Assembly: GCF_022045235.1 (NCBI RefSeq)
Contig: NW_027266275.1
Coordinates: 17,670,001 to 17,734,000, forward strand
DNA: 64,000 nucleotides
Direction: 5' to 3'
DNA from: Haliotis cracherodii
Lineage: Eukaryota
Shown here: in pieces, positions 6,101-57,100 of the stretch
Numbering within the stretch: position 1 is the first letter of the stretch
How the letters are laid out: the number at the start of each line of letters is the position of its first letter
Notes under the pieces: model-generated
Seen by the model: only the letters and a program-made list of their open reading frames with translations
Databases searched by the model: none
Told to the model about the DNA's origin: nothing
Made by a program: the position numbers and the translations under genes

Positions 6101-9100
6101 GGGCTCAGCTATCTTTTTAATGTAGAACAAATGGTTACCCCAAAATTACTTACTTTCAGAATGCTAAAAAAGGGACAAAACGTTTTGATAATCCCAATCT
6201 GAAAATACCTTGTGGATATAAGTGTTCAGTAAACCTGGATCTGAACGTATGGACTTTTATTATCTGATCTTAAAACCTGGACTATAAAATAGATTTTGAA
6301 CTGAAAATCCATTTAACTAATTAACTGTTCTAAGAGCCACACTGACATCGACTTGTATTTGTAAGAGATAACACATTGTATTGATTGATGCATAGGATGT
6401 TATGTAATATATACACATGCTGGGTATGGGGCTGTGTTAAAATTAGAAGACAAGCCAAAATATATTGTATATCAACTAACTTGTTTGGTTATAACACCAC
6501 CTTGTATGGTTAGAAATTAATCTTATTTTCACTTGTTCTCCAAACCTACAGTACTGACAGTTACCAAACAGTAAAATTGTTGCCTGCAAGAAAATATCAC
6601 TTGTCCTTACTGAATATCACTCAAACTTATGTGGGTTTCGAACCCTGCCTTGTGCTAGATGGTGTTGCTGTTCCATGTTGTCAGTTTGAAGCAAACTGTG
6701 AAATCTGAGAATCTTTTACACCCAAACAGCTTAATCTTAACAAAGAGCTATGTTCTTAGATATATTGGTTTTGATAGCATTTATGTCCTGGCTGCATGTG
6801 AAAGATGGAATAATTTTGTTAATGAGTGTCACCAGTAACCGATGTGAAGTGATGAGTTGATAATGATACTGACAATAATGTTCTGACAGTACCCACCTAC
6901 TGATACAGAGAAGATACCCCGGAACATATTAGTCTGAGAGCATGATATACAGGGCATGTTACCTAATACTGATTGATGTCAGGCATGTACTTAATCACAC
7001 ATTTAATGAGGCATGTTGCTCTAAGCTGATGTTGAGACATAAATAGTAACACTGAATGCTGTTGATGAACCTTAATCATGAGGATTTGTGATAATTAAAC
7101 AACTTAATTTTAACTAAATTGGCACACTGTCTAAAATGCATGCAATTATGAGATTCTGGATGAGCTTTTCAAAAAGAAAAGTGTTTACATTTCGAATATG
7201 ATGTTGAGTGCCATCCAAACCTCTCTGATAAATATTATATACTGGAAGGGAACCTGATGTTAAGATTCAAGTTTGAGATTTCAAGTTATTCCGAAAAAGA
7301 CATATTGTGTCTGAGTTTGTGGCTGTTTTGAATTTTATCCAAAATTGTCAACTGAAATGTTATAAATAAGGTTTAAGTATGATAACCCATCAGTCTCCCT
7401 TCCACCCAATATGCATCCTAAAGGTCCTGAAGACTTTCGGAATGTTGACGTTTATGCAAGTCTTCACTGTGGAGACCAATTCTTGCTCTTCTGGGCATGG
7501 GATTCTAAAAGCTTCCAACCTGTTTGTGAATCTAGCTTTTAGCTAGATACCTGCTTGATGCAAATACATGCCTCCATGTTGCCAAGTCGGCCATTTTGAA
7601 TTTTGACACTTCTCACAATGTTGGCGGATTTGCCATTAAACGCTTGCCACTTTTCACAGTTTATCGTTTTGAAAAATACAAGATTTCATGTAAGCACTAT
7701 GCAATTTGTGTATAAGCACACGTGCAATTTGTGTAACCACGTAGAGATACTTTGTTAAGTTAACAACAATTGGCTTGAGTTAATCTTTAAAGTACCATTC
7801 TATCAACAATGCTCTACATACTTACATCACTGCGCAGGAGTAACGTGTGTCTCACGAACAGTAACTGTTGTACAGATAGATGTAGAAGAGTCATTTACTG
7901 GTTCTAGTACTGCTTTACCTAGTTGTGGTAGAAGGTAGATAGATAAGCATGGTAGGATGCATGACGTAAGCAGATGATGATCATGTTACTCTGTTTTCTG
8001 TTGTGGGCCACCTAGAACAAAGAGTTCAACCTTGTAAGTACCCTCCTGTTGATGCATACCCCAACTCTCTCCACATAGGATTAAACCACTGGCTGCAAGA
8101 TAAGAGAAAATACATTATTCAACCACAATATTCATCAATCATTTTGGCCCTGAATGATCATTCATCAAGATTCAAAATTCATGGTGATTCAAAATCATGA
8201 CAAAAGATTTCTTAGGCACTGTTTAAACTCTTGCAAGGACTTCAAACAATTTGATGTGGCACTGATCCACAACATGATACTACGTGATTCATTATCATTA
8301 AAAGATGTTACACCCCTTTTTGTTTGTTCGAGGGGGAAATAAAAAGGTTTGAGACCAAAGTCGCATCAACCAATTGAATATATATCTTTCTGCCAGTGTG
8401 TTTTGTGATTTGAATTGTTAGTTCATTCCTATGCTGGAGAGTGTTTCTTTCTCCATGGGTTATCAATGCAGCTTAGACTGAGGCTCATTAGTGGCTGTAG
8501 ATATTACTTATTATGGTATTAATAGCAGATAGATGTAATAGACACATTATTTTGCAGAATTTGAAGCGTATACCATATTGTGATTATTTCCTGATTATTT
8601 AAAGGTCTCCCATTTGGCTTTGTTCTGTGTAAGTAATGGACCGACCAGAGGATCAGCTGTGTGTGTTTTAGTTAATTAAGTTTGAAATGATTAAGCTTGG
8701 AGATCTGCACTTATCCCTAAAACCTATATTATTGTGTGATTTATTTTTTTCTTATGTACAGTGTTTGCTTCTGTATATATGTATTCTACGACTTGCAATG
8801 TTTACATAGAAACATTCTTAAACTGCACTACACTGAATAGTGAGGTAATTCGTTTCGGAGATCTCATAAAACCAAACCAATTTTTAAGTTTTGTTTCCAC
8901 CATTTTTTTATATTTTTCCAAAAACAACATTTTCGTGATTTTGAGATAATTCTTCAACATGTTTTGGTTGGTATTTTACTAAAGCACTTAATAATTTCAT
9001 ATGCTAAGTGTGCTGTTGTGTATATAATCGATCATGTTTTTTCAATATGTAAGACTAACCAAATGGATCTCATTTCATCATTTTGGAAAGTGTTTTAGAA

Positions 9101-12100
9101 GAGTAAACTGTCAATGAGGTAACAGAAATATCTGGTGAACAACTTAGATTGTCATGTGATCAGAGTGCTTTGTTAACTGTGTACACCTGTTTGAATGTAG
9201 ATTAGATTTACCCTTAAATAGGTTTTGCATTTGAAGAAAAAAAGAATGTTTTTTTTATAGTTATAGAATATTTGCAAATTCATTCTTTTGAGATTGAATC
9301 ATGTTCAAGATTTCATACCACCTTTGCATTGTATCATGTCAGCCATTTTTTGTTTGACTCTGAAACTGAACAGCATCAAACTAATGTTTCATTTCTATTT
9401 AATTTTATTGTCTCTACAGTAACAACATAGATGCCTTTAGTTAAGCATTTACTAATTCTTATCTTCATTTTACTTGTTTCCAAACTATTCTTAAACAGCT
9501 TATTTAAGGATCTTGGTTCTAAAAAAGAAAATGAAACAAAGATCTCTCTAAACTTCAACTAGCTACAATAAACTTTTCGTATTGTTCACTTCTGTCATTT
9601 ATTTCCCAAATTGGACGGTAAACTGCCAATGTTGATGCAGTTCAGTATACCAGAATCTGTCATCTGTTTTTACTTGGTTTATATCATCACCATCATCATC
9701 ATCATCATCATCATCATCACCATCACGTTGTTGCATGCATCATCTTGCTTCATCCTGTGCATGTGTCGTTCATTGTTGTGTCATGTCCCATTGCATCATT
9801 AAGCTCAGGAGCATTAAGCTATGACATTTTTTTCAAAATCTCTTAACCATTGTTTTATTTTATGGTGTTTCATTCAAGGTATTTTCTACATGACTAATCC
9901 AGAAAGATGAGGATTCCTTGTTCATATTTGAAGTATTTCAATGGGTGATGATTTAACCTCCAAAAAGATTTCTCTCTATATATGACTTTATTGTTCTGTT
10001 AATTAATCAGTTTTGATGACTATCACTGCTTATCCTTTCATTTCCGTGCGTTCATTCCATCATCATACGCAACATTTCCATTCATTGTTCTAGTCACTAG
10101 ACCACCTCCATGTCGCCATTACTAATTCACTACATTTTCCATTGGATGTATCAGGAGCAGCCAGCTGTCTTCCAGCTGTTATCATACCTTCTTTCAAATG
10201 CTTTTTCATCGGAATCAATAAAAAGCATAAAAAGTGAATCATTAAATAAAAATGACCTTCTGTTTTCGACTAATTTGGGTCCATTCATATTATATGCCTT
10301 AAGAGCTGGACTATAATTTTCACAAACCTTCAATTCTTAAATAATAATAATTTTCATTTTGAACAGGGTAAATTTTAAATTCTATATGTGACCAGATTGT
10401 AGGGAGTGTATGTAGGTACTGTGTAGTGTACACTGGCTGCTCCATCCCCCACCTCACCTCACCATCGCAGGTGCCCTTCCCCTTCCTGCATCACATCTCA
10501 GCATCCATCATTACAGGGGGAACTGGAGAACCAACTGCTGCAGGCTAACCCCATCCTCGAGGCTTTCGGCAATGCCAAGACCATCAAGAATGACAACTCT
10601 TCTCGATTTGTAAGTTCTTTTGAGAGTGGAATTGCTAATTGTGTTTATACAAACTTTGTTGCTGTAATCAATGTAAGAAACATTCTTCATACCAAAAACC
10701 GATATCTGAGCAGATCAAGATAAGTGTGTGTTTTTTTGTAGGGAATGTTCCCCCCCCAAAATTTTTATTGAAGCACTGCAGTTGATATCTGTTCATGCTA
10801 TCACATTACTTTGTGACTGGCAGCCTCTGAATTTTACAAGAAACCTGTATTAGCTTTATGAAGTATTCGTGATTATGTCAACTCCAACAAATGATGTTTT
10901 GTACATGTTAAAGAAAAACGATTGAATAATTCCTTTCGGAGATGGATTAGACGTCTACTGTGTGAGTTGTAGGATGTGTGTAGATCTTTAATGACATCTT
11001 TGTTCATGTTTCAGGGTAAATTCATCAGAATCAACTTTGATTCTTCTGGTTACATATCAGGTGCCAACATTGAAACATGTATCCTTTCAAGTGAAAAAGC
11101 AGAAGAGTTTGCATTTTGGTCAGAATACTGATGGTCAGTTAAAAAGTGATCAGTGAGGGAGTGCCGCTGAACAAACCAACACAAGCTTGGGTATTAAGGA
11201 CCTAAATTATAAGCTTGGGTACAAGAGATTTAACGTAAATCACAAGGAATGGAAGGATCTAGCTATATCCAAACCAGATATGAAAGTCAAGGGGTATTTG
11301 TCAAAACCCTCATGTTAGAAGTTATACATTGATGGGATCCCTAAATTTGAATACTATTCTAACTGCCAGGATGGCTGATTAGTCCCTGGATTCTTCATGT
11401 TTCTGTTCAGTACACCTTAACCTATGTAAGACCTGCTGGAAAAGTCAAGAGCTGTGCGACAAGCTGAGAATGAGAGGAGCTTCCATATGTTCTACCAGTA
11501 CCTCAATGCAGCCACGCCTCAACAGAGGAGTAAGTAGTTAGAGGATTGTTTGGAAGAAAATAGTACATATCTGGTCAGTGTAATACAGTTAAACCTTGTG
11601 ACCTCACACTCGACTACATCAAAATCAGGGATAAAATATAACTCATTTTAAATACTAGTTGAGCACTATGTATAATAAAGTTGTCAATTTATTAATAAAC
11701 AATTAGCCTTATGGATACCTTTACCTTCATGAACTGTGGCTGGGACTAGTATCAGTAAATAACACCACTATGTTTGTCGTAAGAGGCGACTAACGGGATC
11801 GGGTGGTCAGGCTCGCTGACTTAGTTGATGCATGTCATCGTATCCCAATTGCATGGATCAATGATTATGATGTCAATCACTTGACCACCGTCATATAGCT
11901 GGAATATTGCTGAGTGCGGCGTTAAACAACAAACAAGCACTATCAATGATGTAATTGGTGATCTGGCTAAATTCTTACTGGTGCTATTTTTATCATGAAC
12001 AACAGATAATTCAACCTGTATTCAATGGTCCTGAGGACTTGATCAAGGGTTTACTGTAGTTTCGAGAATACCACTGAGTGAAAGAAGCATAGGGCAGTAA

Positions 12101-15100
12101 GATGGATGTTTATCAAGGGTATATTATGACACATACACAGTTGTTCAGATCTCCAGGGGCTCTGGGGTTTTGACCGTGACACATAGGACTTTCTATTACT
12201 GAGTTTCTTGGGCCTATGTTTCTGTAGTCATTGTTTCCATGGGCAATCGATTACTTGACCCATAGCCACTCATCTGAATATATAGTTCTGCTAGCGTCTA
12301 GGATCTTGATTTGTTTTGTTTTTCCCCCCAGAATCTGTTTCTGCAAATTCATTGCAATGCTACCAGTGCTTCTGTAAACTTGATAGGTGCATCGATCAAT
12401 GCAGTTTTTGGTGTGTCTGAATCATGTACAGGCATGGACCACTAGGTGCATGCCCACTACTGTTCAGAGAGTGATATTGGACCTTATTGCAAACAGGACA
12501 TTGAGAATCCTACTGCATTTCCAGTCCACTCTGCAGTCTATATTCTGATCCATGTATTCAGCCTGTGTCCTTGTTTATATGATTGTGGTCACTTGCTTTC
12601 ATCAGAGGTGTTCTCAGCATTCAATCCACAGACTTTCCCACATTAAATATGTGCAAGGGATTTCCAGGATATTATCTCTCCTAGTGTTCATTCCATACTA
12701 GAGCCTCAAAGTGGTTTACAAACATACACTTATTAGTTTGAATTTCAGTGTCATGGACTTTTTATTTGTATGTAGATGTTCATTGTCAGAAGATGAAATA
12801 CTGAATGGGCCCCCATTATAAGGCAGTATCTAAGGGGGTAGACAATCTAGTTAATTGAAGAATAATTTGATAAATGTTCCTGGTTCATTACGTATTTGAG
12901 TATTACTTTGTATAGTTTAAGCATGTAATGTCCTACTCTCTAGGTTTGGACCACATTATAATGAGGAACAAAGGTAGACATGTTGACTTGCACTCAGTGT
13001 TGAGTGTTCTATGCAAAGTGGGTCATGATGCCCTTGAAATGTGGGGACTCTATGTTTGCAAGACACATTAAAGGTCTTTGAGATATGAAAGTTGTTTTTA
13101 ATTTATTCATTAATTTGACAGTATATTTTGCATTATAACTGTGAAAATGCCTTGTCTTCTTCCAATTTTGAGGTATTAAAAGAAAGAAAGAAAGATGATC
13201 ATGGTTTTATTGAATCTGTATAAGTCAGTACTATCTTATGGTGAGTTTTTACATAAATGTCATGATTGTCATTGTACATAAGATTCAAACATTCAAGAAA
13301 CAAGGATTAGAAATTGTTTTGTCAGTGCTTTATCTTGAAATTATTTTATCTCAGATATGCCTCTTTCCCCCAAGCAGAATTTCAAAGTAAATATATATGA
13401 TTTATCTTTTATTTTTTTAAAATTTTGTATGATTCAATAACAAATACAAGGATGTTTATTTTCTATTAATACCTACTAATGTTATTCATTATCTCCGCAG
13501 AGGAGTTTCTGCTGGAGGACATCAGGAACTACACTTACCTCACCAACGGCCACATGCCCGTCGGCGGCATTGACGATGTCTTGGAGTTCCGCAGCACAGT
13601 TGAAGCCATGACCATTATGGGCATCAACGCAGAGGACCAGTCAGGTGGGCGTTTAGAATGAATGAATGTGGATTTCAGGTTATGATCCGGTGGACATGCC
13701 AATCTTAAGATGTGTACATGGACATGCCAATACTTTGATATGTCCATCAACATGCCAATATTAACATGGTTAAATGGACATGCCAATGGTATGATGTCTA
13801 CATGGACAGACCAATGGTATGCTATTTACATGGATATGCCAATGGTATGCTATTTACATGGATATGCCTATGGTATGATGTTTACATGGACAGACAAATG
13901 GTATGATGTTTACATGGACATGTCAATGGTATGATGTTTACACGGACAGACCAATGGTATGATGTTTACATGGACAGACCAATGGTATGATGTTTACATG
14001 GATATGTCAATGGTAAGATGTTTACATGGACATGCCAATGGTAAGATATTTGAATTGATGTCAATGGGTATATGTTTTACATGGATATGCCAATGGGTAT
14101 ATGTTTTACATGGATATGCCAATGGTAAGATGTTTATATGGACATGCCAATGGTGAAATGTTTACATGGATATGCCAATGGTATGATGTTTACATGGACA
14201 GAACAATGGTATGATGTTTACATGGACAGAATAATGGTATGATGTTTACATGGATATATATCAGTGGCAAGATGTTTAAATGGACAAACTGGATTTCTAA
14301 TCAGTTTGTGTTTGTTATTTCAGCCGTTTTCCGAGTGGTGTCTGCTGTGCTGCTGTTCGGCAACTTGCAGTTCAAGGCAGAGCGGAACTCCGACCAAGCC
14401 ACCTTGCCAGACAACACCGGTAAATCATCACACAAAAATAACAACAAAGTAATCTCATGAAAAATTGTTGAAAATTTCATTGGTAACAAGGCTAATATAC
14501 TACTCAAAGGAAGTTAAGGACCACTCGGTTCTTTCATATTACTATAGCTATCTGTCATGCCATGACATGTAAACTGTAGTTATATGAAAGAATTGGGCTG
14601 CGATTAACTTATGTGGAGTACAAAGTAGACAATAAAATTATGGATAACAACTTCTTTATTATACTGTAATAGCAAAGTTGTTGTCAATATTTTGGGGGTC
14701 TACTTTGTCATTGTCATCTTTTTTAGAAATCCCTCTCAAACAATTTACTTTGGAGTAGTATAATTTCACCATTACACAGTCTCTAGACTGTCAACACATG
14801 TGTTTTCCTGTTTTGACTTTGTGCACATTGGATCTCTGTCTCTGTAGTTGCTCAGAAGGCCTGCCATCTCCTTGGTCTGCCCGTGACCGCAATCACTCAA
14901 GCATTCCTCAAACCCAAGATCAAGGTCGGCAGAGACCACGTAACCAAGGCCCAGACAAAAGCACAGGTAAGTTTCTAAAACAAGGAACTCTCATTTGATA
15001 TTAACCTTACAATGTAATCTGATGTCTTGTTTGAGAAAAAGAGAAAGTAAAGCTAAGGGGAGGTAACTCTCACAGGAGTTTTGATACTTTATAAAATATC

Positions 15101-18100: not shown

Positions 18101-21100
18101 GATTTATCATTTGGATTGACTGTTTTGTAAGATCAGTGTCAGCAATGGATTGGATGAGTTTCCGGTCACCTTTTCTAGACTCGTAGAGTTTTAGCAAGAA
18201 TGGCCATGCTTTTGGGGCCCATTTTCCCAACTTTATGGTCCCAGCTATGCTTTTTCATTTTGATTCAAAATCTGCCAACTTAAATGTCCAACTGTTGCAT
18301 GAAACGTTGTGAGTTTTGGCAGACATATGCTGAAGACAGATGGTTCCAGGAATAATATGGCAGAACACTTTGTTGTATAATGATAAGAAATATTTTTGGA
18401 TAATGATTTGTTTATAAATTAAAGATGAAGGAAGACTCTCTTTTTTTCATGTAGGCTTATAAATTTATAAATATTCAGGTTCGGTTAAGGTCACCACTTA
18501 CAGTAATACCTAAATATTTTTATTTGGATTTATTGTCACATAATCTTCTGTAAATGATCAAAGGGAGACAACTCCCTTTATATGGATATACCCAATGCTT
18601 GATGTTGATATTGACAGTATGGTAGAAACAGCTTCCTACATCCAAAAATTCATAGAAACAGCAGACTCTTCTTTTGATAATGTGTGCTTCTCTATTTACC
18701 ACAGGAATTGTGTGATCTGCAAGTGGATGTTCCTAGCAACCATTTTGTGTGTTTCAGATGAATTCCTTTGAACAACTGTGCATCAACTACACCAATGAGA
18801 AGCTGCAGCAGTTGTTCAACCACACCATGTTCATCTTGGAGCAGGAAGAATACCAGAGAGAAGGCATTGAATGGAAGTTCATCGACTTTGGTCTTGATCT
18901 TCAACCCACAATTGACCTTCTGGAGAAGGTTAGCTTGTCCATCACTTCGAGCAGAGAATCAATGACTGAATACTCTAGAGATACTAAACATGAATATGAT
19001 CTGTGCCACAATAATATCTGATATTATATTTAAAAGAACGTAAAATGCACTGAAGTGTATCCTTAGGTGACACAGTAACATAGAAAGATATCTTTTGTTC
19101 ATACTTTCAACTGGAAGATTGTAGTAGAGGTCAAATGTAGCCTTCAAATTTTCTCCTGTCACCTTACTTACTTGTGTTATTTATTCACAGCCGATGGGTA
19201 TTCTCGCTCTTTTGGATGAAGAGTGTTGGTTCCCGAAGGCAACAGACAAGACATTTGTTGAGAAACTGACGGCCCAACACACTGGTCACCCAAAGTTCCA
19301 CAAACCTGACTTCAGGGCAGATGCTGACTTCTCCCTTGTCCACTATGCCGGCAGAGTAAGTAAATAGCCCAGGCGGCACTTCAATACTTCAATAGGGTCA
19401 CATTGTACCCTAATGCCTGTGACATTGTACCCTGATGGCTGGTCACATTGTACCCTAATGCCTGTGACATTGTACCCTGATGGCTGGTGACATGGCACCC
19501 CGATGGCTGGTCACATTGCATCCCGATGGCTTGTCACATTGTACCCTGATGGCTGGTCACATTGTACCCCGATGGCTTGTCATATTGTACCCCGATGGCT
19601 GATCACATTGTACCCCGATGGCTTGTCACATTGTACCCTGATGGCTGGTCACATTGTACCCCGATGGCTTGTCACATTGTACCCTGATGGCTGGTCACAT
19701 TGTACCCCGATGGCTTGTCACATTGTACCCCGATGGCTTGTCACATTGTACCCCGATGGCTTGTCACATTGTACCCCGATGGCTGGTCACATTGTACCCC
19801 GATGGCTGGTCACATTGTACCCCGATGGCTGGTCACATTGTACCCCGATGGCTGGTCACATTGTACCCCGATGGCTTGTCACATTGTACCCCGATGGCTG
19901 GTCACATTGTACCCTGATGGCTGGTCACATTGTACCCTGATGGCTTGTCACATTGTACCCCGATGGCTTGTCACATTGTACCCCGATGGCTGGTCACATT
20001 GTACCCCGATGGCTGGTCACATTGTACCCTGATGGCTGGTCACATTGTACCCCGATGGCTGGTCACATTGTACCCCGATGGCTGGTCACATTGTACCCCG
20101 ATGGCTGGTCACATTGTACCCTGATGGCTGGTCACATTGTACCCCGATGGCTGGTCACATTGTACCCCGATGGCTTGTCACATTGTACCCTGATGGCTTG
20201 TCACATTGTACCCCGATGGCTGGTCACATTGTACCCCGATGGCTGGTCACATTGTACCCTGATGGCTGGTCACATTGTACCCTGATGGCTGGTCACATTG
20301 TACCCCGATGGCTGGTCACATTGTACCCCGATGGCTTGTCACATTGTACCCCGATGACTTGTGACATGGCATCCTGTTGGCTGGTCACATTGTACCCTGA
20401 TGGCTGGTCACATTTCACTTACACTGACTGATAATCACAGGCTGCTGACATGGGTGGAATGTTGCTGAATGCAAAGTATAAATATCATTCATACACATAC
20501 ACATGAAACTGCCACAGGGTTTGATGTCCGGCCATTAAGTATTTAAGTTACTCAATGGATGACCACGAGCCATGACCCAACTAATCGTTGTGGCTTGTGT
20601 CTTGTTAGGTCACAGAGTTTTAGGTCAGTTTGTTTCAATGACATTGACTGATTGTAAACCCAAATATTATACAATACTTTAAAAGATTTGGCAATGGTGT
20701 AGAAATATGTCATATCAAAAGTTAAAAAAAATATTTGATGAAATGATAAAATACGGTACCATACTGATCAATGCAGGTATTGGAAAGAGGGACAAGGCTC
20801 TGGCAGATTGGCAGTCCCAGCATGCTTGATTCAAAGACCACTCTATTTGCCAAACTAAAATTTTATTATGTATTTTTTTTTATTTAATTGAATTACAGAT
20901 TGAACATATTTTTTTGGTGTGTTTGTGTTACTGACTGTTGTCTTGTCTACAGGTTGACTACCAGGCTGCAAATTGGCTTCTCAAGAACATGGACCCCCTC
21001 AATGAAAATGTGGTATCATTGATGCAGGCTTCCTCGGATAACTTCGTAGCATCAATCTGGAAAGATGGTACGCCTTTAGGGGCTCTTTGAATATATATAC

Positions 21101-24100
21101 TACTCAAAAGAACAGCTGATAAATCTATGTGAATGACTTCAGATCTTTTTAGTGCTAAGGTCACTTCGAGGAACAGGGCCGTGATTGTCAGGCAGTGACT
21201 TTCTGACAGTGTTATCTGTTGTTTTTTCTGGACCTTACTCACTTATACAGAGATAGCTGTGATGTAGGTGACATATACAAACTATGAGTTGTTGTATAAC
21301 TAGCTCCATGTTACAGCTGAGATTGTGGGGATATATATCCTGAGTTTATGTATAATGGCTGAGCTCCATGTTACAGCTGAGATTGTGGGATATATGGCGT
21401 GAGTTGAGTTAGTTGATGTATAACGAGCTCCATGTTACAGCTGAGATTGTGGGGATATATATCCTGAGTTTATGTATAATGGCTGAGCTCCATGTTACAG
21501 CTGAGATTGTGGGATATATGGCGTGAGTTGAGTTAGTTGATGTATAACGAGCTCCATGTTACAGCTGAGATTGTGGGATATATGTCGTGAGTTGAGTTAG
21601 TTGATGTATAACGAGCTCCATGTTACAGCTGAGATTGTGGGATATATGTCGTGAGTTGAGTTAGTTGATGTATAACGAGCTCCATGTTACAGCTGAGATT
21701 GTGGGGATATATATCCTGAGTTTATGTATAATGGCTGAGCTCCATGTTACAGCTGAGATTGTGGGATATATGTCGTGAGTTGAGTTAGTTGATGTATAAC
21801 GAGCTCCATGTTACAGCTGAGATTGTGGGATATATGTCGTGAGTTGAGTTAGTTGATGTATAACGAGCTCCATGTTACAGCTGAGATTGTGGGATATATG
21901 TCGTGAGTTGAGTTAGTTGATGTATAACGAGCTCCATGTTACAGCTGAGATTGTGGGGATATATATCCTGAGTTTATGTATAATGGCTGAGCTCCATGTT
22001 ACAGCTGAGATTGTGGGATATATGGCGTGAGTTGAGTTAGTTGATGTATAACGAGCTCCATGTTACAGCTGAGATTGTGGGATATATGTCGTGAGTTGAG
22101 TTAGTTGATGTATAACGAGCTCCATGTTACAGCTGAGATTGTGGGATATATGTCGTGAGTTGAGTTAGTTGATGTATAACGAGCTCCATGTTACAGCTGA
22201 GATTGTGGGATATATGTCGTGAGTTGAGTTAGTTGATGTATAACAAGCTCCATGTTTCAGCTGAGATTGTGGGGATGGGAGCAGCTGCAGCTGTGGACAC
22301 GATGTTCGGGTCCCGCACACGCAAGGGCATGTTCCGTACTGTGGGCCAGCTGTACAAGGAACAGCTCGCCAAACTCATGGCCACCCTCAGAAACACCAAC
22401 CCCAACTTTGTCAGGTGTATCATTCCCAACCATGAGAAGAAGGTAAATAGATGCAAGGAACAGCATGAAATCAGGATCAGTTTATGTAGGGTTGTTGTGG
22501 ACACAAATGTGTTGATTGGCTGAAATGCTTTCTGTTAAAAAAGCGCCATGCATGATTTTGATGATTCTACTTTTTATTTGTGTAGTTTGCCTTTGAGGCA
22601 AGGCATATTTTCAAATATCCACACACTGCAGCTTTGACGTAGATGAAATTATTTAAAGTGACAGTGCCACTCTCACCCTTGATACATTCTTGGCAGGACT
22701 TTCATACAACTTCATAATCCAGAGATGGAATTTGGCGAGTCAGTATGTCTAATGTTAAAGGTATTGAATGAGCCAGTTGAATTTCATAGTTTGTAAGGGG
22801 TATCTACTTTTGGGGCCTGTAAATGTTTCAGGTTGGGCTCGTAAATGTTTCAGGTTATGTTGCATCCCTGGAAGTGCACGTCACAAAGACTAATGGTTTT
22901 GTTTTTCCAACTGCAGGCTGGTAAGATAGACTCTCCCCTAGTGCTGGAGCAGCTGAGATGCAATGGTGTCTTGGAGGGCATCCGAATCTGCCGCCAAGGT
23001 TTCCCAAACAGAATCCTCTTCCAGGAGTTCCGACAGAGATACGAGATCCTCACACCCAATGCCATCCCCAGAGGATTCATGGACGGCAAAAAGGCTGTAG
23101 AGAAAATGGTAAGTACCAGAACTATTAATTGTGGTATAAATTGGGATTTTTTTGTCAACTTAAGTGTATATTCTAAGGACATAAGTACATTGTGTCACAG
23201 GCAATCTGAGAAAGTTCAATTTGAACAGGGAGAATGAAGATGAGAGAGACCCTCACCAAGAAATGACACATGATGTGTCTGTATTTTTGTGGTTAACACC
23301 ACACATGAGTTGAAGTAAATCTATTACGTACATCTCAACTTGTAAGCTGTTTCATTACAGATCAGTGCCTTGGAGTTGGACGGCAACCTGTTTCGCGTTG
23401 GTCAGAGCAAGATCTTCTTCCGTGCTGGAGTGTTGGCCCACCTGGAGGAGGAGAGAGACCTCAAGCTCACCGACATCATCATCCAGTTCCAGTCGCTTGC
23501 CAGGGGACTGTTGGCCAGAAGGTTGGTCATTTAGACACTTTTTTCCATCTTTGAGGGAGTACAGATTATCTCCCCTTAGGGGTTTTCGTTGTCCCAGTTC
23601 TCTGTGCAAGGTGTAGCATAGACTTGCTTGTATCAAAGACGTGTGTTCAAATACACTGATCATGATCCTTGGTCTTGTGAGCTCCATTCCTGTGCCTGTG
23701 CATTGCATCAAAGTGGAAGCTGACTAAGACCTGCATTACTTTGGGCTTAAGGCCTGCATTAAGCTGACATTAAAAGCTCAAAAAGGCATGAAACCCAACT
23801 TTACTCACCCTCATGAGTTTAATTATATTCTAAGAGAGTGTTGGGGAGTGTTTCAGACCTTCATCACTCCAAAGTACCGGGTTCTGTTCCCAGGGTTTTA
23901 CATAATATTGCATCCTGTATGCATTCACGATTGAAATGGGCACCAAAAAATGACATTGTAAAAAAAACAGTTGTGTTTTTCTTTAAATTTATAAAAAAAA
24001 TGTAGATTACATGTTCCATATAAACTATCGTTTCTATTTTGATACACTCAATGTTCAGTGTGTCAATGCTTGATTTTCTACATCTAACATTGAAAACATC

Positions 24101-27100: not shown

Positions 27101-30100
27101 ATATGGAACTTCGCGAATGTATCATGCTAGGTTACGAGCTGTGACATAGATTTTTCATGCATATATTTTTGCATTAAACATTGTGTCCGAGCCGAGAATT
27201 CAAGGCGACGAAAGCCGAGATGTCATTTGACTTACATTACACGCGATCGCACGAAACGATGGAAATAATAACTTAGATGTAAGTTTGATTACTTTTAGAT
27301 ATATTTTTGTTGATTTTTTTATCACTTTGTATAATATATTTAAAGATTTGTTTAAAACGTCTTTATTTTGCTCTTTGATGTGGACCCGTTGTCGAAATGT
27401 GTGTCCGAGAATTTTATTTTCAATAACATCGCGGGAAATAGTGAATAATTTTATAATTTATCGATTAAAAATGATAAATTGAAATGGAATACGTATTTCA
27501 GACATTGTGAAATGTGACAGATTTAATAAATGAATGATATTACAGGTAGATCTAGGTCCATAAAAATATATACTATTTTGATGTGACGTGAGATAAACAC
27601 ATATTGATGATTTGAGATTTTCCGAGCGCGCGCCTCGGTTAAACGGCTTATCGTCTATAACGCCCACCAATTATTTGGACCCCATTGGTAGCGTTATAGC
27701 GAGCGATCACTGTACTATCATAAAAGGCCAGGTGTGGTATTGTTTAAAGCTCCTTAATTCAGAGAATAGACACTTTTCCTCCACCTGCCGATTTTTCTTT
27801 TTTTTTAACAATACTCTGTATCTCATTTATAAAACTTATGATACTAAAAGTTGTGACGGAATGAGAATAGTTTCTATGTTGTGCTTGCTCCTGTAGTCAA
27901 TGACTGATGTGTTTACAGGCTGGAGGAGGAGGAACAGGCTCGGCAGAAACTGCAGTTGGAGAAAGTGACAAATGATGCCAAGATGAAGAAGATAGAGGAG
28001 GACATGGCAGTAGCTGAGGACATGAATCAGAAACTGCTGAAGGAGCGCAAACAGATGGAAGAGCGTATGAATGATGTCCAGGGACAAATGGTGGAAGAGG
28101 AGGAGAAGGCAAAGCAACTGGGCAAGCTGAAGAACAAGTATGAGGCCATCATTGCCGACCTTGAGGAACGACTCCGCAAGGAGCAGCAGGCTCGCCAGGA
28201 GCTGGAGAAGATCAGGCGCAGACTGGAGTCGGAGCTGAATGACCTGCGTGACCAGCTGAACGAGAAGAGGCAGCAGGTTGAGGATTTGCAGACCCAGCTC
28301 AGCAGACGTGAGGAGGAAGTGCAGCAGGCCCTTCAAAAGTAAGAACCACTTGGAGATGCAATGATGGTATTGCTTGTGGGAACCATCTTTGGGCTTACAG
28401 AAGTAAGAACCACTTGCAATGTAATGATAGTAGTGGTTGTTGGACCATGTCTAGGGCTTTTAGATGTAAGAACCACTTGGGGAAGTAATGAACATTTTAG
28501 TGGTGGTGAAGGGATTTAGACTAAATATCCATGATGGATAGATGGAAAGATTCACCGATGATTGTGGTAGTGGCAGAGTTCATGGGTGCATATTATGTGG
28601 TCCATCTTCCAGAACTGATGAGGAGTCTATAGCCAGGTCGAACATGAACAAGCAGATCCGAGAATTTCAGAACCAGATTCAGGAACTGCAGGAGGACTTG
28701 GACTCGGAGAAGGAGAGCAGGAATAAGGCAGAGAAACAGAAGAGGGACCTTAATGAGGTTGGTAACAACTTGTGCACTGTGCCTGTTCCAGACTTCACTT
28801 TTACACTCGGGACCTCGGTTACATGGCCAAGGAAGGGGCGGTCGGGTAGCCTAGTGGTTAAAGCGTTTGCTCGTCACGCCAAAGACCCGAGTTTGATTCC
28901 CGACATGGGTACAATTTGTGAAGCCCATTTCTGGTGTCCCCCGCCGTGATATTGCTGGAATATTGCTTAAAGCAGCATAAAACCACTCACTCACTCACTC
29001 ACACTCACTCACTCACTCACTCACTCACTCACTCCAAGGTACTCATGGTATATACAATCCTGTTCACTCACTAAGTGGAATTTGAATAGCGGTTTACGGT
29101 CCTTGAACAACACCTATAAGTCTTTGACACATATTCCAATCACTTTCCACATATGCTTATTTGACTTATGATTTAACTGACATACTGTTCAGAGTTTCAT
29201 TTAAACAGGAAGTCACTCATTGCACTTCCTTAGATCCCGTCAGCTAGTATTGCACAAACAGTCAAAGTGTGGCAACTGATGCTCTAAACTGTTTTCCTAT
29301 AGGAATTGGAGGCTCTGAAGACGGAGTTTGAGGCCGAGTTGGACAGCACAGCTGCTGCTGTGGAGCTGAGAACCAAGCGTGAGACTGAGATCAAGGACCT
29401 GAAGAAGTTATTGGACTTGTCTCAGCGTCAGCATGAGGAGAGCATCCAGGACATGAGGCACAAGTACCAACAGCAGATGGAGAACCTCAGCGAAGAGATC
29501 GAGACAGTCAGGAAGGTAAATAAATACTCGATCACAACAACGCACGCGAAAATTCCTGCGAAAGCCCTACCTCTATAACGTCATTGCTAATATCCTCTAT
29601 TTTCTTTGTCATCATACTTTTATGATCTTTAGATTTTCAACAGCAGTCCTCTACACAGTCAACTATCCATAATCAGTCATTTTGATAATAGTCTTCCATT
29701 GCCCAGTGCTCTTGCTCAAACATAAGGCTGGAAAACCTCACTTCTTTCTTGTGTGCGCTAGAGTACCCATATGAAAAGTATATCTAGCACGTCTTGGTAG
29801 TTTGTCACTCTGCAGTTAGTTTGTATTTCCTGAAAACAGTGCATGCCAGCTTCCTATTTGATTTTATGTGATACATTTCAGGGCAAGAACGTGATGGAGA
29901 AGAACAAGACGACCCTGGAGGCGGAGAACCAGGACCTGGCTAATGACCTGAAGCAGGTCCAGATGGCCAAGCAGGAGTCTGAGCGAAAGCGGAAGCAGGC
30001 CGAGCAGCAGCTGCAGGAGGCCTCCATTAAGCTGCAGGAGCTGGATCAGGGCCGGGGAGAGACTGTCGAGAAGGTGACGAAGCTGGCCACCGAACTGGAC

Positions 30101-36100: not shown

Positions 36101-39100
36101 TGCTTGCCGTAAAAGGCAACTATGCTTGTTGTAAGAGGCGACTAATGGGATCATGTGGTCAGACTCGCTGACTTGGTGATGCATGTCATCGTATCCTAAT
36201 TGCTTGGATTGATGCTCATGATGTCAATCACTGGATTGTCTGGTTCAGACTCGTTTATTTTACAGACTGCCGTCATATAGCTGGAATGTTGCTGAGTGCG
36301 GCATTAAACAACAAACAAAACGTTTGAATTACTTCCTTTATTTTGTCAGATGGAGCAAATGAGTGCTGATTTGTCAGCTGAGAAGACACTTTCCCTGAAG
36401 TTGGAGAACCAGAAGTCTGCCCTGGAGAGGCAGAACAAGGATATGAGAGACAAGCTAGCAGAACTGGAGGGGCAGAACCGATCTAGAACCAAAGCTACTA
36501 TAGCTGCCCTTGAGAGCAAGATTGTCAATCTGGAAGAGCAGCTCGAAATTGAAGCCAAGTGAGTCTACCAGGTTCACTGGGTTGATATCAATACCATCGA
36601 TGTAGGAACAGCGTTAGAAACTGGCACTAGTCCTATAGTCCTTGCCAAACTGCCCAATGGTCAAGGTATCATAAGGTCTAGTAGAAAGTAGCCCTTTTTA
36701 AGAATTTTGCTACATGTTATCATTATGAGGACTAGTGGATGAAAACTGTCACTGACGAACCTGTTGAATTAGTGACCAGGACCAATTTGCAGAGTTGCGT
36801 CAACCCTGAGAGTGTTGGGTCTCATTAAATTGGGAAATATCTACAGTCTGCAGGACAGCACTTTCGACTACCACAAAATCACCTTCCTCACTCATACCGT
36901 TGCCTTCGTATGCCAGACATAGTGTAACTTTAACACTTGTAATCAGTGAGGTGGACAGATAATGTGTTTGTCTACATCACTGTCTTTGTTATCCCCCCGG
37001 CATCTAACTACTCCTTTTGTACGGACAGACAGCTCAGAAATTCTCTTGTCAAGTTGGACTTAGTGTAACAGTCAGATGATTTCTTCTGTGGAATTTTTTG
37101 GGGGCGAGGGATTTGCTATCTCCTGATGACTCTTGCATTATTCTGAATGTGTTTCACATTTCTGTGTTCCAGGGAACGGGCAACATTGTCAAGAGCGAGT
37201 CGGAAACTGGAGAAAAAGCTGAAGGAGTTGGTGTTGCAGGCTGAGGACGAGAGGAGACATGCTGACCAGTATAAGGAACAGGTCAGTTGGGGTGGATGCA
37301 GGGTAGTCACATGGTGGTCGCAGGGTGGATGCAAGGTAGTCGCAGGGTGGATGCAGGGTAGTCACATGGTAGTTGCAGGGTGGATGCAGGGTAGTCACTG
37401 GGTGGATGCAAGGTAGTTGCAGGGTGGATGCAGGGTAGTCACAAGGTGGTCGCAGGGTGGATGCAGGGTAGTCACATGGTGGTCGCAGGGTGGATGCAGG
37501 GTAGTCACATGGTGGTCGCAGGGTCAGTTTATCTTACTGCACAACTTATCTTATGCATGCATGCTTTGGCCTGAATCAATAAAAATACCACATTTAGGCA
37601 TTTGTAGCAGACGACAGCAAACAAACTGAGTTATTCCCCCTAGATCTATTTCATTTGGAACATATTGTTAATATCTGGAAAATGGTGTCTAACATTTAAT
37701 TAGAGATACAAAATTGTGGTTTGTATGTTGCAGGTGTAATTCCAACAGTTAGACAATTCTAGTGGGGAACATAAGAAATGTACCTTACATGTTAGCGGGG
37801 TACATTGAAAATAATAGAATGGGTCTCAGCCATACAGAATCTGACATTCATGTGCAACACTGTAAGTTGAGATTGTGTGATGTATTGCCTTGACTCTCAT
37901 TACAAACAAGGGGGACGGACACCTTGTAAGTCTTTGTGTTTCCACCTGCAGCTTGACAAGGTGAACAACCGAGTGAAGGCCTTGAAGCGACAGTTGGACG
38001 AAACTGAGGAGGAGGTTGCACGTCTCAACTCTCAGAAACGTAAACTACAGAGAGATATCGATGAGCAAATGGAACAAAATGAAGTGGCATCTCGAGAAAT
38101 CTCACAGTTAAGAAAATTCAGGTATGTGGCATTCCCTGTTTCATCAGCCATTGATGCATAGCATTGATGATATTGTAATGTATCTATAGAACTTGCAGTT
38201 AACCTTTAGACATGTTATTGTTTGTAGTAGAATATTTGTACATGTTCTCTGCATGATACGTTAAGTAGGTTTGTTTAGGTGTTTTTTTTGGTGATAAGTC
38301 AATCATTGAACTATGTTTTCATCATCACGTTATTGCATGATTCAAAACACTTTCATTTTTGGTGTCTTTGTATTTATGACATCTCATCTTCCATTTAGCA
38401 AAATGTGAGGGTATGTTATCTGATTTTTAACCAGTCCTATCATAATAGCAGCTTAATTGTGCTGTCGTGGTTATGCAATGAGTCCAAATATTGCACTGCA
38501 GTATATAGCTTCTCTTCAAGAGTTGACAGTGGCGTGGCATTTATTCATACTCTGATTGGAATGCATTCAGCAATTCTGTATTCAGCTAAAAAAGTTAAGT
38601 CGTTTTCTGAATTGGCTGAAAGGTCTGCTATCTAAAGCTGTTTGATGTCCTTTGCAAAATCATTCATGCTTTGCTTCAATGGTATTCTACAATAATACCT
38701 CGCCTTTCAGGAGATATTAGGTAACGTACCGTCTTTCCTTCATGTATTCAATATTATATATATTTCTATGTACAACTAAGTACAGTAAAATCCTGTAATT
38801 CTTGTCCCATGATAACCTCATATATCCGTCATTTTCCATGCAGTCTAAAATGTGTTTGCGAAGCCAAGAAGAAGTGAAAGGTATTCGCATGTTCCGCCAT
38901 CCCTTGGCCTCAAGCTCTTCCATTTGCAATGAAACGCCTGGATTGCATATTTATTATAAGTCATTGGTTTAATTTTTTTGGCTTCAGTGTTCAATATGAA
39001 AACAGTGAGAATAGGCTTGAATGATCTGTTGTAATCTGGGTATTTCCTCCCACCTCATCTCCAGTTGAACGCATCCATCGCCATTTCATGACATCTTGTC

Positions 39101-47781: not shown

Positions 47782-48945
47782 AAGTATAAATCTAGGCCTC
47801 TATGTACAGATCTGGGCCTCCTCTATGTACAGATCTAGGCCTCTTCCAAGTACAGATCTGGGCCTCCTCTATGTACAGATCTAGGCCTTCTCTATGTACA
47901 GATCTGGGCCTCCTCTATGTACAGATCTGGGCCTCCTCTATGTACAGATCTGGGCCTCTTCTATGTACAGATCTGGGCCTCCTCTATGTACAGATCTAGG
48001 CCTCTATGTACAGATCTAGGCCTCCTCTATGTACAGATCTAGGCCTTCTCTATGTACAGATCTAGGCCTCTTCCAAGTACAGATCTAGGCCTCCTCTATG
48101 TACAGATCTAGGCCTCCTCTATGTACAGATCTAGGCCTACTCTATGTACAGATCTGGGCCTCCTCTATGTACAGATCTAGGCCTCCTCTATGTACAGATC
48201 TGGGCCTTCTCTATGTACAGATCTGGGCCTCCTCTATGTACAGATCTGGGCCTCCTCTATGTACAGATCTAGGCCTCTATGTACAGATCTGGGCCTCCTC
48301 TATGTACAGATCTAGGCCTTCTCTATGTACAGATCTAGGCCTCTTCCAAGTACAGATCTAGGCCTCCTCTATGTACAGATCTAGGCCTACTCTATGTACA
48401 GATCTGGGCCTCCTCTATGTACAGATCTGGGCCTCCTCTATGTACAGATCTAGGCCTCTATGTACAGATCTGGGCCTCCTCTATGTACAGATCTGGACCT
48501 CCTCTATGTACAGATCTAGGCCTCTATGTACAGATCTGGGCCTCCTCTATGTATAGATCTAGGCCTCCTCTATGTACAGATCTGGGCCTTCTCTATGTAC
48601 AGATCTAGGCCTCTTCCAAGTACAGATCTAGGCCTACTCTATGTACAGATCTGGGCCTCCTCTATGTACAGATCTAAGCCTACTCTATGTCCAGATCTGG
48701 GCCTCCTCTATGTACAGATCTAGGCCTCCTCTATGTACAGATCTGGGCCTCCTCTATGTACAGATCTGGGCCTCCTCTATGTACAGATCTGGGCCTCCTC
48801 TATGTACAGATCTAGGCCTCCTCTATGTACAGATCTAGGCCTACTCTATGTACAGATCTGGGCCTCCTCTATGTACAGATCTAGGCCTCTTCCAAGTACA
48901 GATCTAGGCCTCTTCCAAGTACAGATCTTGGCCTCTTCCAAGTAT

Positions 48946-49462
48946 CAGGGATGTGAAATCTCTGAGGAAACGCGTAAAATAGCGTTTTTTCAAACAGTAG
49001 TCCTCGGAAAAAATCATCTTCCTCGTAAAAATATAATCAAAGATTTTAAAAACTCCGAAAATATGATCGAAAACCGGACAACCGTTGCGGATTGTCCTGT
49101 TTTCGATCAGAGCTTTCAGCTGCATAGGTTTTCGGACATAATACGTTTTCTATCACGAATACTTGCACTATAACATGGGGTGTGGCGTGGCGTGGCGTGG
49201 CGTGGCGTCACGCAAAAAATTGTAAGTACTCAGAGTCAGATGATGGCTTGTTTTTAAGATAAAGTTGTCTTTTAGCCTGTAAGTCAATCACATGTTTTAC
49301 AGTTGTTAATGTGATTAGCGAGAAAACTATGAATGTTTCTTCAGCGTCCAAAAACCAATAACATTGGGATATATATTGCATTAGTGTCTTATGTTTGCAA
49401 TGGAGTTGGCTTTTTTCAACTAAAGGTAAGTAAGAAGAAGGTAAGTTTTTTTCACATCCCTG
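48946..49462. mobile_element. Same MITE, copy 2
   Basis: Identical flanks and TSD; differs by a few substitutions and two extra GCGTG units. Confidence 0.85.
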
Positions 49463-50984
49463 AAGTATAAATCTAGGCCTCTATGTACAGATGTAGGCCT
49501 CCTCTATGTACAGATCTAGGCCTCTTCCAAGTACAGATCTAGGCCTCCTCTATGTACAGATCTGGGCCTCCTCTATGTACAGATCTAGGCCTTCTCTATG
49601 TACAGATCTGGGCCTCCTCTATGTACAGATCTGGGCCTCCTCTATGTACAGATCTAGGCCTACTCTATGTACAGATCTGGGCCTCCTCTATGTACAGATC
49701 TAGGCCTCCTCTATGTACAGATCTGGGCCTCCTCTATGTACAGATCTAGGCCTTCTCTATGTACAGATCTGGGCCTCCTCTATGTACAGATCTAGGCCTC
49801 CTCTATGTACAGATCTAGGCCTACTCTATGTACAGATCTGGGCCTCCTCTATGTACAGATCTGGGCCTCCTCTATGTACAGATCTAGGCCTCCTCTATGT
49901 ACAGATCTAGGCCTACTCTATGTACAGATCTGGGCCTCCTCTATGTACAGATCTAGGCCTTCTCTATGTACAGATCTGGGCCTCCTCTATGTACAGATCT
50001 AGGCCTCTTCCAAGTACAGATCTAGGCCTTTATGTACAGATCTGGGCCTCCTCTATGTACAGATCTAGGCCTTCTCTATGTACAGATCTAGGCCTCCTCT
50101 GTATACAGATCTGGGCCTCCTCTATGTACAGATCTAGGCCTTCTCTATATACAGATCTAGGCCTCCTCTATATACAGATCTGGGCCTCCTCTATGTACAG
50201 ATCTAGGCCTCCTCTGTATACAGATCTAGGCCTCCTCTATATACAGATCTAGGCCTCCTCTATGTACAGATCTAGGCCTACTCTATATACAGATCTAGGC
50301 CTCCTCTATATACAGATCTGGGCCTCCTCTATGTACAGATCTAGGCCTCCTCTGTATACAGATCTAGGCCTCCTCTATATACAGATCTAGGCCTCCTCTA
50401 TGTACAGATCTAGGCCTACTCTATATACAGATCTAGGCCTCCTCTATGTACAGATCTGGGCCTCCTCTATGTACAGATCTAGGCCTACTCTATGTACAGA
50501 TATAGGCCTACTCTATGTACAGATCTGGGCCTCCTCTATGTACAGATCTGGGCCTCCTCTATGTACAGATCTAGGCCTACTCTATGTACAGATCTAGGCC
50601 TACTCTATGTACAGATCTAGGCCTCTTCCAAGTACAGATCTGGGCCTCCTCTATGTACAGATCTAGGCCTACTCTATGTACAGATCTAGGCCTACTCTAT
50701 GTACAGATCTAGGCCTCCTCTATGTACAGATCTGGGCCTCCTCTATGTACAGATCTGGGCCTCCTCTATGTACAGATCTAGGCCTACTCTATGTACAGAT
50801 CTAGGCCTACTTTATGTACAGATCTAGGCCTACTCTATGTACAGATCTAGGCCTCCTCTATGTACAGATCTAGGCCTCCTCTGTGTACAGATCTAGGCCT
50901 ACTCTATGTACAGATCTAGGCCTTCTCTCTGTACAGATCTAGGCCTCCTCTATGTACAGATGTAGGCTACAGTCATGTATGTAA

Positions 50985-54100: not shown

Positions 54101-57100
54101 ATATTGACAAAAGCTTCAAAAAGACAAAAACTGTCAAATTATGTTTGAGAAATTATACTCCACAAAGTGCGTATATCTCATACACCATTTGTACACACCT
54201 GCACTGACTCCCCACAGAGTGTACATGTAGCCTATATCTCATACACACCTGCACAGACTCCCCACAGAGTGTACATGTAGCCTATATCTCACACACCTGC
54301 ACAGACTCCCCACAGAGTGTACATGTAGCCTATATCTCATACACACCTGCACAGACTCCCCACAGAGTGTACATGTAGCCTATATCTCATACACACCTGC
54401 ACTGACTCCCCACAGAGTGTACATGTAGCCTATATCTCATACACACCTGCACAGACTCCCCACAGTGTGTACATGTGGCCTATATCTCATACACACCTGC
54501 ACAGACTCCCCACAGAGTGTACATGTAGCCTATCTCTTACACACACCTGCACAGACTCCCCACAGAGTGTACATGTAGCCTATATCTCATACACACCTGC
54601 ACAGACTCCCCACAGAGTGTACATGTAGCCTATATCTCACACACCTGCACAGACTCCCCACAGAGTGTACATGTAGCCTATATCTCATACACACCTGCAC
54701 AGACTCCCCACAGAGTGTACATGTAGCCTATATCTCATACACACCTGCACAGACTCCCCACAGAGTGTACATGTAGCCTATATCTCACACACACCTGCAC
54801 TGACTCCCCACAGAGTGTACATGTAGCCTATATCTCACACACACCTGCACCGACTCCCCACAGAGTGTACATGTAGCCTATATCTCATACACACCTGCAC
54901 CGACTCCCCACAGAGTGTACATGTAGCCTATATCTCATACACCTGCACAGACTCCCCACAGTCTACATGTAGCCTATATCTCATACACACCTGCACCGTC
55001 TCCCCACAGAGTGTACATGTAGCCTATATCTCACACACACCTGCACCGACTCCCCACAGAGTGTACATGTAGCCTATATCTCATACACACCTGCACCGTC
55101 TCCCCACAGAGTGTACATGTAGCCTATATCTCACACACCTGCACCGTCTCCCCACAGAGTGTACATGTAACCTATCTCTCATACACACCTGCACCGACTC
55201 CCCACAGTGTGTACATGTAGCCTATATCTCATACACACCTGCACAGACTCCCCACAGAGTGTACATGTAGCCTATATCTCATACACACCTGCACAGACTC
55301 CCCACAGAGTGTACATGTAGCCTATCTCTTACACACACCTGCACAGACTCCCCGCAGAGTGTACATGTAGCTATATCTCTCATACACACCTGCACTGACT
55401 CCCCACAGAGTGTACATGTAGCCTATATCTCATACACACCTGCACAGACTCCCCACAGAGTGTACATGTAGCCTATCTCTTACACACACCTGCACAGACT
55501 CCCCACAGAGTGTACATGTAGCTATATCTCTCATACACACCTGCACTGACTCCCCACAGAGTGTACATGTAGCCTATATCTCACACACACCTGCACCGAC
55601 TCCCCACAGAGTGTACATGTAGCCTATCTCTCATATACACCTGCACTGACTCCCCACAGAGTGTACATGTAGCCTATATCTCATACACACCTGCACAGAC
55701 TCCCCACAGAGTGTACATGTAGCTATATCTCATACACACCTGCACAGACTCCCCACAGAGTGTACATGTAGCCTATATCTCACACACCTGCACAGACTCC
55801 CCACAGAGTGTACATGTAGCCTATATCTCATACACACCTGCACAGACTCCCCACAGAGTGTACATGTAGCCTATATCTCATACACCTGCACCGACTCCCC
55901 ACAGAGTGTACATGTAGCTATATCTCATACACACCTGCACAGACTCCCCACAGAGCGTACATGTAGCCTATATCTCACACACCTGCACAGACTCCCCACA
56001 GAGTGTACATGTAGCCTATGTCTCATACACACCTGCACAGACTCCCCACAGAGCGTACATGTAGCTATATCTCATACACACCTGCACAGACTCCCCACAG
56101 AGTGTACATGTAGCTATATCTCATACACACCTGCACAGACTCCCCACAGAGTGTACATGTAGCTATATCTCATACACACCTGCACAGACTCCCCACAGAG
56201 CGTACATGTAGCCTATATCTCACACACCTGCACAGACTCCCCACAGAGCGTACATGTAGCCTATATCTCACACACACCTGCACCGACTCCCCACAGAGTG
56301 TACATGTAGCCTATATCTCACACACCTGCACAGACTCCCCACAGAGCGTACATGTAGCCTATATCTCATACACCTGCACAGACTCCCCACAGAGTGTACA
56401 TGTAGCCTATATCTCATACACACCTGCACAGACTCCCCACTGAGCGTACATGTAGCCTATATCTCACACACCTGCACAGACTCCCCACAGAGCGTACATG
56501 TAGCCTATATCTCACACACACCTGCACCGACTCCCCACAGAGTGTACATGTAGCCTATATCTCACACACCTGCACAGACTCCCCACAGAGCGTACATGTA
56601 GCCTATATCTCATACACCTGCACAGACTCCCCACAGAGTGTACATGTAGCCTATATCTCATACACACCTGCACAGACTCCCCACAGAGCGTACATGTAGC
56701 CTATATCTCACACACCTGCACAGACTCCCCACAGAGCGTACATGTAGCCTATATCTCATACACACCTGCACAGACTCCCCACAGAGCGTACATGTAGCCT
56801 ATATCTCATACACCTGCACCGACTCCCCACAGAGTGTACATGTAGCCTATATCTCATACACCTGCACAGACTCCCCACAGAGTGTACATGTAGCCTATAT
56901 CTCATACACCTGCACAGACTCCCCACAGAGCGTACATGTAGCCTATATCTCATACACCTGCACAGACTCCCCACAGAGCGTACATGTAGCCTATATCTCA
57001 TACACCTGCACAGACTCCCCACAGAGTGTACATGTAGCCTATATCTCATACACACCTGCACAGACTCCCCACAGAGCGTACATGTAGCCTATATCTCATA

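Follow-up and report, generated by a model that had tools for sequence, protein, structure and literature searches.

The non-muscle myosin II heavy chain gene of abalone (Haliotis) carries, in its loop-2 intron, 15 head-to-tail copies of its own 3′ splice junction (4 of 60 bp and 11 of 64 bp), each consisting of the intron end plus 13–16 exon bases and lying 5′ of the real acceptor (22260|22261). The array is a real, well-formed molluscan example of a class of repeat already described in lancelets and humans. It is very likely a tolerated junction minisatellite (a "mirage") whose last copy is spliced, whose decoy leaks would be removed by nonsense-mediated decay (NMD), and which has no regulatory role, being most probably inert; within this explanation the anatomy of the array, its tandem units in other samples, the canonical junction of the RNA contigs, and the stops in the decoy products are direct observations. 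All coordinates are positions in the window, the 64,000-nt stretch of DNA that was analyzed; the organism's own genome comprises 1.18 Gb.

The 60 amino acids encoded by the exon 3′ of the array are 100% identical to those of 15 Haliotis isoforms from three species among the matches listed, all labelled non-muscle myosin heavy chain, and the best protein match to the window (P0007) is labelled H. cracherodii. A spliced match to P0007 resolved 31 introns exactly; a further junction, which has a micro-exon inside it, falls outside this set. The last full residue of the exon upstream of the array aligns with D621 of Myosin-10, at the start of loop 2. The loop-2 span measures 28 aa in 72 of 74 homologues (those of 120 that exceed 800 aa and contain the motif), 29 in one, and 32 in one fish protein. 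Among the matches listed, all 15 Haliotis isoforms have the plain loop-2 junction; they differ (full alignments of eight) in a loop-1 micro-exon of 18 nt and at the C-terminus but are alike in loop 2, and the isoform models do register that 18-nt exon while showing no loop-2 insert.

Other features of the gene include the loop-1 micro-exon itself (window 8016–8033), found in some Haliotis isoforms and missing from others, and alternative last exons near 38842, 39383, and 40949. A further intron (window 11079–11430) has GTATCCTT as its donor and, some 10 bases 5′ of the AG, a CCTTAAC motif resembling a branch site; by consensus, this intron looks like one of the U12 (minor-spliceosome) type. 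Elsewhere in the genome, a cluster of at least about eight myosin-head-like paralogues with long open frames lies on both strands (G000:C12:64630820-65941422).

The units of the array fall into four types (Table 1): A (64 bp, seven copies), B (60 bp, four copies), C (64 bp, three copies), and D (64 bp, one copy); Tandem Repeats Finder (TRF) reports a period of 64, 14.5 copies, and a score of 1491. Types A and C are identical at 63 of 64 positions and D and A at 62 of 64, the differences between the latter being T/A at −4 and one G>A, as the initial annotation had stated; its 16 junction coordinates (15 decoy plus the true 22261) are all exact, and the GTGAGT that it placed 22 nt past the AG is present in 11 of 11 64-bp units. 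These hexamers score 3.1–3.7 bits, below 29 of the gene's 31 real donors. As in known mirages, the repeat unit straddles one of the host gene's own intron/exon junctions, the copies retain usable splice signals (CAG in 15 of 15 decoys), and the inner units are homogenized with distinct boundary units: D has two private changes, and the left copy, which supplies the first decoy acceptor at its 3′ end, has only 44–45 identities to inner units. A 27-base junction pattern matched 16 times in the 1.18-Gb genome, each time inside the array (reversed control, 0), on which ground origin from a dispersed repeat or transposon was rejected.

Table 1. Features of the loop-2 intron array and of the second junction duplication in the myosin gene
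Feature	Position in window	Strand	Evidence and remarks
Upstream coding exon with a phase-1 end where loop 2 starts	20953..21067	+	Exact spliced match to P0007; exon end present as loose sequence in both RNA contigs
GT-AG intron, 1193 nt, containing the array	21068..22260	+	P0007 match; absent from RNA contigs
Decayed left-boundary copy (16th)	21257..21316	+	45/60 identical to B, 45/64 to A; also in X4
Mirage minisatellite, 15 units in the order BCBCAABAAABCAAD	21317..22260	+	TRF, pattern search, head-to-tail units in the DNA of X4 and X5
Decoy junctions	21317, 21377, 21441, 21501, 21565, 21629, 21693, 21753, 21817, 21881, 21945, 22005, 22069, 22133, 22197	+	
GTGAGT donor-like hexamers (11, one per 64-bp unit)	21399, 21523, 21587, 21651, 21775, 21839, 21903, 22027, 22091, 22155, 22219 (range 21399..22224)	+	Exon side weak
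Last unit (D), with the authentic acceptor TTTCAG at its end	22197..22260	+	Mismatch counts in X4 and X5; T at −4 also in X7
Authentic 182-nt loop-2 exon	22261..22442	+	P0007 match, RNA contigs; strong donor at 22443 (9.3 bits)
Donor-side duplication, 63-bp unit, 2.2 copies	28337..28479	+	TRF; donor at 28339, with decayed copies of it at 28403 and 28466

Of 17 sequencing runs listed, six were compared, all as assembled contigs. DNA run X4 contains the left edge of the array, a B unit together with the junctions on either side of it (85/85 identical), head-to-tail joints, and a unit variant absent from the window; X5, DNA from another study, contains a head-to-tail 64-bp unit, and the mismatch counts of the exon-bearing contigs (X4 record 5 and X5 record 15) fit unit D. 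The array is real and not an assembly artefact. The copy number of 15 does rest on the assembly, and unit-contig depth in X4 and X5 is just 1–3 times that of the flank; against an artefact, to which we assign a negligible probability, stand the B unit, joints, and left edge just described, the order of the unit variants, and a related array in a second organism. Depth, which is no copy number, is about 14 times the flank in run X7, and run X8 has no unit contig; the low values of X4 and X5, together with the missing B core of X5, hint at shorter alleles in those two runs. Outside the repeat, too, the array intron is polymorphic: X4 has a 9-base insertion at window 21105, and the contigs of X4 and X5 break at about 21112. 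Gaps in coverage (about 21113–21286 in X5, and the upstream exon in X7 and X8) were given no weight.

In X7 (organism B) a 57-base unit lies 5′ of the true acceptor, and the contigs break there into short unit contigs, at least seven of which contain unit sequence mixing A-type and B-type features. Window and X7 units are identical at 46 of 64 and 50 of 60 positions; because X7 has this related array, the array probably predates the split from organism B. In X8 (organism C) a single 2,875-nt contig continues unbroken for 957 nt upstream of 22246; upstream of this point it begins like the decayed left copy of the window, and its upstream 900 bases do not align to the window. X8 yielded no unit-like contig and no homogeneous array (one individual, one run; the upstream exon is outside coverage in X7 and X8). 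Downstream, X7 and X8 differ at five listed sites and each differs from the window at 24–25; organism C, the closer relative of organism B, has probably lost the array or lacks it. The array persists in two species about 2.5–3% apart, and donor-like GT sites occur 21–23 nt past the AG in both. The conservation across related species expected of a regulated poison exon was not seen: with one individual each, X7 has a diverged array and X8 none that is homogeneous.

Splicing was assessed from runs X12 and X13, which come from one study and share their organism code with the best-matching DNA runs. None of the listed runs is on record as RNA; these two are RNA by an automated guess, and their contigs are spliced. 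Each has one contig (depth 476 and 352) over 22165–23200, which starts at 22260 with loose sequence corresponding to the last bases of the upstream exon and skips 22443–22916. The assembled main message thus joins the upstream exon to the last acceptor, 22260|22261, and in both RNA-like runs, as in known mirages, the regular mRNA uses the authentic copy. Depth is 0 over 22165–22234 in X12 and X13, no contig covering the unit before the true acceptor, and neither of these two contig sets, in which rare forms are lost, includes a decoy-spliced contig. Low-level use of decoys could have been missed, because contigs drop rare variants and NMD was active in the RNA sampled.

What distinguishes the last acceptor from its copies is not the strength of the site: on a matrix built from the gene's other 30 acceptors (31 introns, the one of U12 type retained), the true site scores 6.5 bits, within the 6.1–7.8 bits of the decoys. 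The T/A difference at −4 was rejected as a switch, since it does not separate true site from decoys on this matrix; A occurs at −4 in 7 of the gene's 31 real acceptors and TTACAG in 3 of 31, TTTCAG is the commonest acceptor hexamer (8 of 31), and 55 unused AGs in the 23,775 nt of the gene's other introns reach the A-type score. Masking of decoys by RNA structure was also rejected (unpaired probability at −6 to −1 of 0.04–0.18 for the true site and 0.00–0.28 for decoys, 11 of 15 folded), as was recursive splicing, because joining to a decoy leaves no GT at the junction. If the donor were paired with the nearest site across the intron, 21317 would be chosen and the intron would measure 249 nt (the gene's shortest is 252 nt); the RNA contigs contradict this.

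Only the last copy carries the rest of the 182-nt exon together with a 9.3-bit donor, compared with 3.1–3.7 bits for the GTGAGT sites, so it is likely that exon definition picks this acceptor. A further cue is needed, because the last decoy (22197) would form a 246-nt exon with the same donor. All 15 decoys have A at −4, in contrast to the T of the true site, a pattern that could reflect selection; the true site of X7 also has T, which suggests that T is ancestral and that A spread through the copies of the window. Each of the six X7 unit pieces listed has at least one unlisted mismatch, in the last decoy within 15 bases 5′ of the junction, and the simplest reading of these counts would be that X7 decoys keep T at −4. 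The description of the locus in the initial annotation as a natural test of exon definition is apt, in that decoys score like the true site and RNA uses the last one; the locus is not the first of its kind, such arrays being known and one, in human F7, having been used in this way on the donor side.

Splicing to a decoy would be destructive. Simple shifts of the 3′ splice site stop early in 15 of 15 cases, and all 98 decoy/GTGAGT pairs stop prematurely (31 of the 98 define exons of 50–250 nt), so that inclusion has the outcome typical of a poison exon. Transcripts that leaked to a decoy would be substrates for NMD, which explains why the array is tolerated, yet gives no sign of regulation. The 22-nt micro-exon between AG and GTGAGT proposed earlier would produce a stop right where the true exon starts; the 60-bp units are stop-free in frame as claimed, but the unit following each B is a 64-bp unit with an in-frame stop. 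Just two in-frame, stop-free cassettes (27 and 33 nt) can be drawn from the array, both from a B unit, and they would give a loop-2 micro-exon of 9 or 11 residues resembling the B2 insert of vertebrates. This outcome is extremely improbable: the donors required score −2.9 and −2.5 bits, under all 31 real donors; the GTGAGT and 3′-shift products all stop; X5 has no contig over the B core (a coverage hole, and a weak point); and a search for an in-frame loop-2 exon with a usable donor that appears in isoforms found an insert in none of the 15 Haliotis isoforms listed. The connection to B2 made in the initial annotation therefore stands for position, which corresponds to D621 of Myosin-10 at the start of loop 2, and fails for a B2-like insert, the GTGAGT sites giving no in-frame product. 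We assume that B2 enters exactly after residue 621 of Myosin-10.

Minisatellites are abundant around the gene. The 400,000 flanking bases contain 84 arrays with a period of at least 15, covering 42,870 bases (10.7%), and nine such arrays occur in the gene stretch examined. If arrays were seeded at random, roughly 0.49 junction-spanning units would be expected in the gene (P(≥1) 0.39, P(≥2) 0.09); two were observed (2 of 62 sites), the acceptor array and a donor duplication (28339–28466). Further intronic minisatellites of the gene (13691–14254, 19396–20414, and 37290–37524, with periods of 28, 23, and 11/22 bp) copy no splice junction. Downstream of the gene lie minisatellites at 47797–50967 (23 bp × 139), 54192–57187 (50 bp × 61), 57465–58256 (50 bp × 16), and 58897–59372 (57/75/132 bp); Pfam found no match in the tested frames flanking them.

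A codon-score screen of the 400-kb flanks for junction arrays proved too biased toward myosin. A Pfam screen of 197 open frames at array ends in the flanks, of low sensitivity, gave one match, a COX11-like exon; as a positive control the window was recovered, with 4 of 38 window frames matched. At this locus (L040:9165-10000, minus strand; G000:C12 ~17569165-17570000) a 37-bp minisatellite, with AG and GTGAGT in most units, lies just before the 42-nt COX11-like exon and stops about 30–40 nt 5′ of its acceptor, which is not copied; it is another intron with tandem pseudo-exons.

The closest known systems are the mirages of amphioxus, which the available parts of the literature place in BflGb6, BflGb9, Adh3, troponin C, and PGBD5 and describe as varying in length and leaving regular splicing undisturbed (PMC3087553, PMC3902484). 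As far as these accounts go, the abalone array shares with them minisatellite-like tandem copies of an intron/exon boundary, retained splice signals, undisturbed regular splicing, and homogenized inner units from which boundary units are excluded; like the BflGb6 mirage it lies on the acceptor side, but it has 15 copies of 60/64 bp rather than 3–6 of 150–160 bp. It differs further from the mirages so described in its mollusc rather than cephalochordate host, in its 13–16 exon bases per unit, and in the presence of an array in a second species. The Adh3 mirage is reportedly unstable in somatic cells.

The 37-bp VNTR of human F7 intron 7 also has a unit spanning an exon-intron boundary and was tested with 50 constructs (PMC1557585). 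In F7, identical pseudo-sites are silent and, as in abalone, the site adjoining the full exon is used; unlike the abalone array, which is on the acceptor side and known from sequence and contigs, the F7 repeat is on the donor side and construct-tested. The human CBS 844ins68 allele is an analogue that consists of one extra copy and not an array, and is medically studied (PMC2630376). The loop-2 cassettes of vertebrate non-muscle myosin II (A2, B2, and C2) are described as conserved in-frame neural exons of 21–33 aa, minor in abundance, with A2 at 5–15% (PMC10480317). They belong to the same region of the motor as the abalone intron, which follows the residue aligned to Myosin-10 D621; on that description they differ from the abalone array, which has no credible in-frame exon. 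Among papers on Haliotis intronic minisatellites, screened by title and start of abstract with most subscription papers outside the scope, none addresses this myosin gene.

In the explanation that we favor, a single duplication of about 60 bp across the intron-end/exon-start junction would have founded the array, and unequal exchange or slippage would then have expanded it and homogenized the inner units; the origin would precede the split from organism B, with loss or absence in organism C. The last copy, alone in adjoining the full exon and strong donor, would be chosen by exon definition; transcripts that spliced to a decoy instead would meet a premature stop and be removed by NMD. The lack of a homogeneous array in X8 suggests that the array is dispensable, and counts for inertness; persistence in two species and the shared GT sites count against it, as does the fact that an insert at the 5–15% level could escape contigs. 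It is unlikely, although conceivable, that the array is leaky and unselected, a few transcripts using decoys or 82/86-nt pseudo-exons and being degraded, with long alleles costing a little myosin mRNA and the T at −4 and nearby GTGAGT limiting the leak. Such leakage would agree with the resemblance of decoy scores to those of real acceptors, with the 50–250-nt exons defined by 31 of 98 decoy/donor pairs, and with the T at −4 in the true sites of both the window and X7, TTTCAG being the commonest hexamer (8 of 31); it is opposed by the lack of a decoy or pseudo-exon contig in X12 and X13 and by the X7 decoys, which apparently keep T at −4 and so would make the T/A change unneeded for tolerance.

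Selection for poison splicing, in which copy number would set the unproductive share and tune the dose of non-muscle myosin, perhaps by tissue, is decidedly improbable. Every GTGAGT-based product has a stop, a second species has a related array, unit-contig depth hints at length variation, and in vertebrate paralogues this intron position hosts regulated cassettes (PMC10480317); on the other side, stops are what random intron sequence gives, chance seeding suffices (0.49 expected), units have diverged between species (46/64 and 50/60 identical), X8 lacks a homogeneous array, and decoy-spliced RNA was not seen in the contigs of either RNA-like run. We give little credence to the proposal that the array, polymorphic in length and kept across abalone species, emits 82/86-nt stop-bearing pseudo-exons in proportion to its length and so acts as a heritable dial that sets the dose of non-muscle myosin II. 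An intronic VNTR of ABCA7, whose length is said to affect splicing, is the model for this idea; the abalone rheostat is proposed by analogy.

As a tolerated minisatellite, the array presents 15 near-identical acceptors, one of them at an ordinary short-intron distance, that are bypassed for one beside a full exon; this choice suggests recognition across the exon in an animal whose introns are mostly short. With alleles among abalones that are apparently long, short, or missing, the locus would be convenient for minigene experiments and for allele-specific tests of acceptor choice. The array would have greater importance only if its copy number changed unproductive splicing of the myosin gene; if that were true, the dial would occupy the intron at which the neural loop-2 switch of vertebrates arose.
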